Of a DNA stretch of 18,746 nucleotides, positions 15,501 to 17,111 are shown piece by piece. The first letter of the stretch is position 1. Every line of letters begins with the position of its first letter. Below the pieces are notes generated by a model. It worked only from the letters and a program-made list of their open reading frames with translations. It was not told where the DNA came from and searched no databases. Location: assembly GCA_019844455.1 (NCBI GenBank), contig GCA_019844455.1_3938.2. One strand, 5' to 3'. The position numbers and the translations under genes are program-made. Source of the stretch: a phage.

Positions 15501-17111
15501 ACGTCTATAAAGAGACTCTATACAATCCCTTTCCTTTCCTTCCTAGAATCTATCCCACTAATTCGATAGAGACTATCTCATACCTTAAAAAGCAATAACT
15601 CTATAGTCTACTCTATAACCTCTTATCAAATCAACTTAAATATAAGCCCATAACCCGAAAGGGAAGGGCAACCATTTAAACGCTCTATAAAGCCCTATAA
15701 CAGCCTTATCAACCTAACTTAAGCAATCATATTAACCCACTCTAAAAAGCCCTTTATAGAGCTTCCCAGAGCCTTAAAAGAATCTTATAAGGGTGTGAGC
15801 TTTATCATCTCGTTAGCTATCTTGTGAACTACTAAAAAGGGCTTGTTAGTGTCTTAAAAGTATGTTATAGGGGCTATAAAGTTACTTCAAAGTTACGTAA
15901 AAGAGGCTATAAAGTTACGTAAATGCTAGCCCCCTTAACATTTTCTTAACAATTTCTTAACAATCCCTACATAGTTATGCTTTTAAGGCACTTGTTAGAG
16001 ACTTGTTAGCCCCTTGTTAAATCTCTGTTAAGACCACGTAAAAGCCTTGTAAGAGTCTTTAGCATAGCCTTTAAAGCCTCTGTAAAGCCCTATAAAGAGG
16101 TGTCTGTATAGTTGGGGTGTAATTACTAGGAAGAGACTTAAAAGAGCTTACAAGGAGCTATAGAGAGCTTTTAAGAGGGCTATTTAGAGAATCACTAAGA
16201 GGGAAAGGGAACGATAAGAAAAGAGAAGTTGTGTTTGTAACCAACCACTGTGACCATGTTAATAGCTTGTTAAAAAGATTAAACACTTGTTAGAAACTTG
16301 TTAATTATCTTAACAAAATAACCCTTTAAAATTAACTTGTTAGCTCTTGTTAGTCATCTGTTAAGATTCTGTAAAGCCTATGTATCAACTGTTAAGAACT
16401 TGTTACAACCTTGTTAGTTCTGTTAAGAATCTGTTAAGACCTCTGAAGAGATGTTAAGAGTATGTAGTAGCTGTTAAGAGATTGTTAAGGATATTTTAAA
16501 ATTCTGCAAAGGGATGGTAAGGGAGCTGTTAAGGGCTACCAAGCAGATATACACCCTCAACAGATATTTTTGAGTTCCTTCAAAGACCCTAAAAAATGAC
16601 TTGGTAGTCCTATTTTATAAAAATTTTAAAATTCTGAATAATTACCTAGACAGTCTTTTAAAAATACAGGTAGAAACAGGCTTATAAGATACCTTGTTAG
16701 TACCGTGTTAGACCTTGTGAGATAAGGTCTGTAAAGATATTCCTGTTAAGTTTGTTAAAACAGTCTATATAGAGGCTTAGTAATACCTAGTGAACACCTA
16801 TAGAGGGTAACATAGCTGACATAGAGATTAAGAGGTGTATAGGAGCTTCTAAGAGGGTATAGAGGGATGACTAAGGTGATTGTATAGGCTGTTAAGAAGG
16901 CTTGTTAGAAGAGTGTTTAGAGGGCTTATTAAAGGGCTAGTTAGAAGGCTTATACAGGGGGGCTATTAAGACCACTAGATAGTTACTAAGATACTATATA
17001 GTACTATATAACTATATATAGAGAGTAAGATTAAGAAGGATGTTAAGAAGGATAGATATTTTATTCACATATGATGGTGACCCAGAGGTTGGAACAACCG
17101 ATAAAATTTTT
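15501..17111. other. 1.6-kb ORF-free, repeat-dense non-coding region between convergent terminators
   Basis: The ORF track shows no ORF of 60 aa or more in any frame between the array terminator and the minus-strand terminator. Sequence is dominated by 8-mer words of the form CT....AG (cttgttag, ctgttaag, ctataaag, ctgtaaag, cttataag). Confidence 0.7.
15842..16908. repeat. helically phased array of a degenerate 8-mer (CTTGTTAG / CTGTTAAG / CTGTAAAG; reverse complement CTTAACAA)
   Basis: Copy starts mapped by hand: 15991, 16002, 16013, 16025, 16046, 16069, 16080, 16090; 16266, 16286, 16297, 16336, 16346, 16358, 16369, 16389, 16399, 16410, 16420, 16431, 16471, 16482, 16526; further copies to 16901. 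Spacings are mostly 10-12 bp or multiples. Reverse-complement copies at 15934, 15945, 15956 and 16309. Confidence 0.65.

Follow-up and report, generated by a model that had tools for sequence, protein, structure and literature searches.

What does a short repeat do that follows the helical turn of the DNA and reverses its orientation in a stretch without genes? This question is raised by a locus in an 18,746-nt stretch of phage DNA (GenBank assembly GCA_019844455.1, contig GCA_019844455.1_3938.2), which was analysed at its full length and is referred to hereafter as the window. Three copies of the heptamer TGTTAAG lie here on the minus strand and are followed within 30 bp by copies of the repeat on the plus strand. 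An earlier, sequence-only reading had taken this flip for a local dyad centre and had compared the opposed arms with replication origins or centromeres on which a protein loads divergently. The flip is real, non-random and kept across four phage genera. However, comparison with relatives places it at the edge of a direct terminal repeat (DTR), and the flipped repeats most likely help the packaging enzyme to find and cut the genome ends rather than acting as an origin or a centromere.

The flipped repeat maps to the left edge of the direct terminal repeat

The window is a piece of a Felixounavirus genome, i.e., of a Felix O1-like myovirus. Its 1.7-kb gap between genes is matched by 257 phage records, nearly all of them from Felixounavirus and its relatives; 184 of the 257 span at least 80% of the gap, and the best are 88-92% identical over its full length. 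The gap (15438-17155) holds no open reading frame (ORF) of 60 aa or longer and lies between converging genes, those on the plus strand ending at 15437 and those on the minus strand at 17156. The flanking gene order agrees with that of the relatives, and in annotated relatives both converging gene blocks are ended by terminators.

Mapping from the relatives placed a 612-bp DTR at 15929-16540 of the window, or at 15927-16542 when boundaries of the run-off type are used. Several independent records among the BLAST hits begin at query position 490, which corresponds to window position 15929, while others end at window positions 16511-16540. The records of Pr103Blw, D4 and Mooglevirus HP1 start with GCCCCCTTAACATTTTC... 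at 15929. At the other side, window position 16540 is the end (...GTTAAGGGCTACC) of the annotated DTRs of Pr103Blw (short DTR, 1-581) and HP1 (repeat_region, 1-570) and of the pEP20 record. The 581-bp copies at the two ends of the Pr103Blw record are identical, and PhageTerm analysis of this phage had reported two 581-bp repeats (PMC8303462); the ends of D4 and E9 were also determined by PhageTerm (PMC11737134). For UAB_Phi87, a DTR of 608 bp was obtained from Bal31 digestion and sequencing run-off (PMC4837284). The GenBank record of UAB_Phi87 is opened away from its physical ends and gave no direct help in placing them, and the DTR feature of UAB_69 maps to window positions 15927-16542. Compared with the UAB_69 DTR feature and the record of Erwinia phage M7, the PhageTerm-type ends fall 2 nt short at either edge, a difference that could be due to a true end structure such as short overhangs or to an effect of the method.

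The DTR occurs in a single copy in the window, as expected of a concatemer junction or of an assembly in which the two copies were collapsed. With the boundaries taken from the relatives, the window would have the concatemer-junction form, consisting of the right-end flank (15438-15928), one copy of the DTR (±2 nt) and the left-end flank (16541-17155). This junction would be the only site at which unit genomes are excised during packaging. Because the left edge of the DTR lies at 15929 in the relatives, the three reverse units would occupy the first 35 bp of the packaged DNA, at the extreme left end of the virion genome. With this end placed by homology, there are 5-7 nt between the left terminus of the virion DNA and the start of the reverse arm.

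Two sequence blocks mark the boundaries. The left block TAGCCCCCTTAACA (15927-15940) carries the cut at 15926/15927 or 15928/15929, and the right block, TGTTAAGGGCTACC followed by AAGCAGATATACA (16526-16553), carries it at 16540/16541 or 16542/16543. Repeat units abut both cut sites.

The terminal repeat carries an oriented and helically phased array

All units share the core TGTTA(A/G). The full unit CTTGTTAAG is partly palindromic, six of its nine positions being the same as in its own reverse complement, so that its orientation is decided by the central GTT versus AAC, where it is unambiguous. The reverse arm (15934-15963) consists of three TGTTAAG units 11 bp apart and reads TTGTTAAGAAATTGTTAAGAAAATGTTAAG on the minus strand. 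It is separated from the left forward arm by a 27-bp spacer (15964-15990), in which CCCTACATAGTTATG is mostly conserved; next to it comes a site with 11 or 22 bp missing in relatives. The left forward arm (15990-16035, plus strand) contains four units 11 bp apart (CTTGTTAG, CTTGTTAG, CTTGTTAA and CTGTTAAG). It is followed by the central DTR (16036-16253, plus strand) with degenerate units such as CGTAAAAG, CTGTAAAG, CTATAAAG and CTTAAAAG, and by the right-hand array (16254-16536, plus strand), which has 16 forward TGTTA units in helical phase and was also mapped with a position weight matrix. A lone reverse TGTTAAG unit (16309-16315, minus strand) lies within this array. On the minus strand, all four reverse copies are exact TGTTAAG.

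The sequence-only reading had described most of this arrangement correctly, i.e., the 11-bp distance between units, the 27 bp between the arms, the reverse copies at 15934, 15945 and 15956, the forward copies at 15991, 16002 and 16013, and the lone reverse copy CTTAACAA at 16309. Two of its 8-mers were off in the last base: the window reads CTTAACAT at 15934, where CTTAACAA had been given, and CTTGTTAA at 16013, where CTTGTTAG had been given. The 8-mers at 15945 and 15956 are indeed CTTAACAA, and those at 15991 and 16002 are CTTGTTAG. The fourth forward unit, CTGTTAAG at 16025, lies beyond those that had been listed.

The units are far more frequent than expected by chance. TGTTAAG occurs 22 times in the window compared to 4.9 ± 2.2 times in dinucleotide shuffles, and none of 200 shuffles reached 22. 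Within the 612-bp DTR, 20 forward and 4 reverse copies of TGTTA were counted, equivalent to densities of 32.7 and 6.5 per kb; either strand of the coding part has about 1.5 per kb, and Markov-1 simulations of the DTR gave 1.7 forward and 0.7 reverse copies. Along the DTR the units are oriented in the order <<< >>>> >>>> < >>>>>>>>>>>> (<, reverse; >, forward). With 4 reverse units among 24, finding reverse units in all of the three leading positions has a probability of 0.002, a figure calculated post hoc. Forward and reverse copies are not randomly interspersed across the region, as the reverse copies cluster at the left end of the DTR.

The right-hand array also follows the helical repeat of DNA. 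Its best period was 10.29 bp with R = 0.84, a value that was reached by none of 2000 random placements (99th percentile, 0.63). In the complete 88.4-kb genome of Pr103Blw, the cluster was found at the two termini only, with 22 TGTTA per 600 bp compared to at most 8 (median, 2) in the rest of the genome. This confinement to the termini argues against a dispersed regulatory motif, and a phased array of putative protein-binding sites is a reasonable interpretation.

The two edges of the terminal repeat are related by inversion

The strongest inverted repeats of the region all couple the left-terminal arm with the right-hand array, e.g., 15935-15973 with 16461-16499 (39 nt, 79%) and 15932-15958 with 16509-16535. 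When the reverse arm was reverse-complemented, it matched the sequence at 16471, about 500 bp away at the right end of the DTR, in 24 of 30 positions. By comparison, the adjacent forward arm, which had been proposed as the partner in a local dyad centre, matched in only 20 of 30 positions, a value also reached by the best random match within 15 kb of coding DNA. Furthermore, both 5' ends of the DTR read TAGCCC(CC)TTAACA when followed inward. Understood in this way, the flip forms the left half of a two-fold relation that links the DTR edges and is not a local dyad centre.

Orientation and offsets are conserved across phage genera

The boundary blocks were compared among sequences from Felixounavirus, Mooglevirus and Suspvirus. 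Eleven of the 12 enteric-phage sequences that cross the left boundary, the window included, have an identical left block TAGCCCCCTTAACA, and the remaining one, Sf17, is one base off; the Erwinia version of the block is TAGCCACTTTTACA. At the right boundary, AAGCAGATATACA is identical in every sequence that crosses it, and the motif AAG(C/T)AGATATACA of the right block is also kept in Erwinia phages. In an alignment of the DTRs of nine enteric phages, again including the window, the longest fully invariant run was TGTTAAGGGCTACCAAGCAGATATACA at the right boundary, and the left boundary together with the reverse arm was nearly invariant.

The positions of the units are conserved as well. The TAACA cores of the reverse units are found at +7, +18 and +29 from the left end in eight of the nine enteric genomes, which represent three genera; Sf17 lacks the first one. 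The flip to forward units takes place at +53 or +64 in the nine genomes, the left forward arm has three to five units, and the lone internal reverse copy is present in all nine at about +340 to +400. Indels between the arms occur in steps of 11 or 22 bp, sizes that preserve the helical phase. Among the TGTTA/TAACA core columns, 109 of 120 were invariant compared to 258 of 492 other DTR columns (Fisher p = 1.5e-16), with mean pairwise identities of 0.96 and 0.76, respectively.

A scan of IMG/VR with a 20-mer from the right boundary retrieved 31 contigs, most of them 81-94 kb and four 51-73 kb long, which yielded 27 distinct DTRs, 25 of them enteric and 2 from Erwinia phages. Every one of the 25 enteric DTRs begins with two to five reverse units at 11-bp steps, and four of these DTRs lack the internal reverse copy. 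Lineages more distant than the four genera were not retrieved by this 20-mer.

The Erwinia phages (genus Kolesnikvirus) resemble the window at the DNA level only at 16427-16553, i.e., at the right edge of the DTR. Erwinia phage M7 has an identical 444-bp repeat at both ends of its record, with boundaries at homologous sites; the repeat starts with TTAGCCACTTTTACATTTCGTTAACAA and ends with GGCCACTAA, and GTAGATATACA follows beyond the boundary. While the rest of this DTR has diverged, its polarity is the same (<<<<<<>><>><>>>>>>>>>), whereas simulations gave about 1.3 matches per strand. The retention of polarity in a diverged DTR is the strongest argument that the orientation of the units is under selection.

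A probable packaging function for the oriented array

Taken as a whole, these observations make it more probable than any other reading that the units form an orientation-coded, putative protein-binding array which positions the terminase cuts at both edges of the DTR. The TGTTAAG units, lying on one face of the helix, may serve as a platform for the packaging machinery or for a DNA-recognition partner of the large terminase. The outermost units point outward, each toward its own DTR edge: on the minus strand, the left edge is approached through ...AATGTTAAGGGGGC(TA), or more fully ...TGTTAAGGGGGC(TA), and on the plus strand the right edge through ...GCTGTTAAGGGCTACC(AA), or more fully ...TGTTAAGGGCTACC(AA). 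The same complex, placed in opposite orientations at the two edges, would nick opposite strands. In a concatemer with one repeat copy between two genomes, one nick would be made in the top strand, at the left edge, and the other in the bottom strand, at the right edge. Fill-in of the gaps would then provide each daughter genome with its own repeat copy. Staggered nicks followed by fill-in are the established scheme for phages of the T7 type. Considering that two such nicks are related by two-fold symmetry, the recognition element is expected in opposite orientation at the two edges, and this is seen here. T7-type cutting and synthesis of the second copy have been summarised previously (PMC3350473, PMC10438801); the cut at the repeat edge is sequence-specific, and how the second repeat copy is completed is not fully understood (PMC3350473).

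The more specific version of this model, in which one recognition protein binds the outermost units oppositely at the edges and so directs the top-strand nick on the left and the bottom-strand nick on the right, with fill-in duplicating the repeat, is tentative, and we regard it as a possibility that may well prove wrong. It concerns phages without a recognisable small terminase. In Pr103Blw, the large terminase gene (16576-18399) lies about 17 kb into the genome, counted from the left end. It is preceded by a single ORF, for a 66-aa hypothetical protein, and a small terminase is not annotated.

Several points weigh against a role in packaging. The mirror relation at the cut sites is imperfect, as the TAGCCC...TTAACA block is shifted by about 4 nt from one end to the other, and the PhageTerm-type and run-off-type boundaries lie 2 nt apart at both ends. 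Matches of 20-21 of 30 are background, so that only the 24 of 30 at 16471 stands out. To our knowledge, the CCTAAAG arrays of T7 have no settled role. Furthermore, a small terminase has not been identified in this phage group (PMC4837284), and no candidate for a TGTTAAG-binding protein was found among the ORFs flanking the gap, which matched only families of unknown function. The ends of this particular phage were placed by homology only, and the terminal position of the array would also be compatible with replication, concatemer recombination, DNA ejection or end protection.

The last of these points leads to the alternative that survives best, namely that the array binds a phage or host protein with an end function other than packaging, such as protection from exonucleases, ejection or a pairing of the two repeat copies that leads to concatemers. 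The confinement of the cluster to the termini and the same sequence polarity at both virion ends, read inward, fit this explanation, and the helical phasing suggests cooperative coating or wrapping. However, the motif has no link to any known end-binding protein, and the longest invariant run is the cut-site block at 16526-16553, which favours cleavage over coating. An end function is also compatible with packaging and is therefore no exclusive alternative. We consider it unlikely as the explanation of the array.

A replication origin, in which the opposed arms would load an initiator or helicase divergently and unwinding would start at 15964-15990 or in a nearby AT-rich stretch, appears improbable. 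Phased short repeats are typical of iteron origins, an AT-rich stretch is present at about 16600-16650, and a mapped origin of Felix O1-like phages was not found in the literature. In addition, base composition switches here: within 15250-17250, the GC skew is -0.25 up to about 15950, where the DTR has its left edge, and turns positive (+0.12 to +0.35) to the right of it. However, this switch is a consequence of the strand bias that the units themselves have and need not signal replication. The units, with a 7-bp core every 10-11 bp, are also shorter than the 17-22 bp usual for iterons. DnaA boxes with at most one mismatch were at chance level (6 versus 5.9 expected), with none at 15929-16540, and neither Pfam nor PHROGs gave a match to an initiator-like family among the seven ORFs flanking the gap. 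The interval 15964-15990, previously proposed as a defined core to be footprinted, tolerates deletions of 11 and 22 bp in relatives, and its length is thus not constrained. Moreover, an internal origin does not explain why the distance of the reverse arm from the end of the DNA is constant in four genera. With DnaA boxes at chance, initiator and partition families unmatched among the flanking ORFs and the arm fixed to the DNA end, the reading as an origin or a centromere is not supported.

The possibility that the array has no function and consists of short tandem repeats made by slippage and tolerated in a gene-free gap is very improbable. Changes in copy number by 11-bp steps (two to five units in the reverse arm, three to five in the left forward arm) and several small indels in the region would be in line with slippage. 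However, the cores show a mean pairwise identity of 96% compared to 76% for the other DTR columns (p = 1.5e-16), orientation and offsets are fixed across three enteric genera, and the Erwinia phages keep the polarity though their DTR has otherwise diverged.

A partition centromere, i.e., a parS- or parC-like array bound by a ParB- or ParR-type protein, has only the general look of phased, opposed repeats in its favour and is hardly credible for an element located at the DNA ends of a virulent phage group (PMC3185647), with no Par-type match in Pfam or PHROGs among the seven gap-flanking ORFs and no Par genes annotated in a complete relative.

Comparison with known end-forming systems

The closest likeness is to the concatemer junction of T7. 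Both have a short, exact DTR in a gene-free junction with many 7-bp units across and beside the repeat; in the T7 ends, we counted 13 copies of CCTAAAG between positions -106 and +332, numbered from where the 160-bp repeat starts. Furthermore, in T7 the cutting at the edge is sequence-specific and the second copy arises by synthesis (PMC3350473, PMC10438801). The two arrays differ in polarity, with 13 forward and no reverse copies in T7 compared to 20 forward and 4 reverse copies, clustered at the left end, in the DTR of the window. They also differ in spacing and placement, since the T7 units are mostly 13 bp apart with most copies outside the repeat, whereas here they are 10-11 bp apart, helically phased and mostly inside. 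Finally, T7 is a podovirus with a known small terminase, while none has been identified in the Felix O1-like myoviruses (PMC4837284). Junctions of the T7 type also involve a small and a large terminase acting as a pair and a pac element that depends on transcription; the terminase gene of the phage studied here is located outside the window. The element in the window is therefore of the same kind as the T7 junction, i.e., a short-DTR junction studded with a heptamer.

A likeness in the edges themselves is found in Bacillus SPO1-like myoviruses with DTRs, in which the left end 5'-AGGTTTT and the right end ...AAAAACCT-3' are reverse complements and were read by the authors as a recognition or cleavage site of the terminase (PMC5418689). 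Here, the corresponding inverted edge sequence is TAGCCC(CC)TTAACA, present at both ends when read inward. The Bacillus phage repeats are kilobases long and a phased multi-copy array is not reported for them, whereas in the window the inverted element is the outermost unit of an array of more than 20 copies.

In the cosB R sites of lambda and in the pacL and pacR boxes of SPP1, short, helically phased sites beside the cleavage site position the nuclease. Helically phased repeats flank the cleavage site also here (10.29 bp, R = 0.84). In contrast, the cos and pac sites are recognised by a small terminase that has been identified, and their products are cohesive ends or a headful series, while the Felix O1-like phages have an exact direct repeat of 570-660 bp and a small terminase has not been identified. 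Iteron origins and centromeres share the phased and partly opposed short repeats. Unlike them, the element in the window is tied to the DNA ends and has units shorter than iterons; neither an initiator nor a Par gene was recognised among the neighbouring ORFs, and DnaA boxes occur at chance level.

Further features of the junction and its surroundings

The ORF-free flank left of the DTR (15438-15928) corresponds to the unique right-end flank in the virion, before the right-hand DTR copy. It is C-rich on the plus strand, with a GC skew of -0.25, and contains the units CTATAAAG, CTTAAAAG and ACGTAAA, and CTATA is enriched 17.5-fold. The terminator of the plus-strand genes lies near 15477-15501 and is annotated at the homologous site in AYO145A. 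The flank right of the DTR (16541-17155) corresponds to the unique left-end flank, after the left-hand DTR copy. It contains the AT-rich stretch at about 16600-16650, further forward units at 16692, 16703, 16741, 16750, 16887, 16900 and 17038, and the terminator of the minus-strand genes at 17121-17146. The seven ORFs beside the gap matched only PHROGs of unknown function and no Pfam families.

A second repeat family (CTATAAAG, CTTAAAAG, CTGTAAAG and ACGTAAAAG), mostly in forward orientation, occurs at 15500-15925 and 16036-16200, where it fills the left flank and the middle of the DTR. It has a TAAAG core in common with the CCTAAAG and CATAAAG heptamers of the T7 junction. In the Erwinia phages, the flank that corresponds to 15438-15928 carries another unit, CTTCTAA(A/G). 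A perfect, AT-only inverted repeat of 17 nt (ATTTTATAAAAATTTTA at 16612-16628 and TAAAATTTTTATAAAAT at 17102-17118, with 473 nt between the arms) encloses most of the left-end flank, and its second arm abuts the terminator at 17121-17146.

Several small inserts were seen on aligning the relatives. A 24-bp insert within the DTR, GAAGTTGTGTTTGTAACCAACCAC at 16225-16248, is common only to the window and VpaE1 among the nine aligned sequences. UAB_69 and SUSP2 contain a 22-bp palindromic insert, AATTGGTATTGTTACCAATCCC, which is inverted at another site in VpaE1 and absent from the window; these inserts sit opposite window positions of about 16333 and 16198. Another 24-bp insert, GAGGTAGATTCTACCGAATCAACT, is located directly to the right of the DTR in VpaE1 and Moogle. 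Both AATTGGTATTGTTACCAATCCC and GAGGTAGATTCTACCGAATCAACT look like tiny mobile or recombination-borne inserts.

Upstream of the junction, a 57-bp direct repeat that had been described from intergenic regions of Felix O1 (PMC3185647) recurs between small plus-strand genes, with copies at 9681-9735, 10177-10209, 10532-10588, 11164-11184 and 12202-12255. Other intergenic repeats of about 70 bp, detected as cross-matches in the alignment of relatives to the window, lie likewise between small plus-strand genes at 11855-11927, 12719-12792, 13616-13726, 14783-14849 and 15117-15186.

Two further candidate functions of the gap were rejected. For a non-coding RNA, the only Rfam match was a sub-threshold Phe-leader over the terminator at 17116-17177 (25.9 bits compared to a gathering threshold of 55). 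For a promoter cluster, 13 weak sigma-70-like matches were obtained, many of them due to the resemblance of TTAACA to a -35 hexamer; none had a good -10 element, and there is no gene downstream on that strand.

Implications for genome ends in Felix O1-like phages

That Felix O1-like phages have a terminal repeat has been reported before (PMC4837284, PMC8303462). In the genome paper of Felix O1, short terminal repeats were no more than inferred and the gap was not dealt with, and the papers on Felix O1, wV8, VpaE1, UAB_Phi87 and Pr103Blw give the repeat length at most and do not describe the repeat units. In some records, the reverse arm is covered by automatically assigned repeat_region features without interpretation. 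An oriented, phased array inside the DTR was not found described in the searchable literature.

Felix O1-like phages are in wide use for Salmonella typing and biocontrol, and many of the deposited genomes are opened at arbitrary points. The block TAGCCCCCTTAACA and the block formed by TGTTAAGGGCTACC and AAGCAGATATACA, together with the flipped units, offer a simple sequence rule to place the true ends throughout the group. Beyond this, the arrangement suggests a testable model of how a terminase without a known small subunit finds both edges of the repeat and cuts opposite strands. If the orientation code is true, it would provide a concrete and testable answer to the question of how an exact short terminal repeat is formed, which is unclear even for T7.

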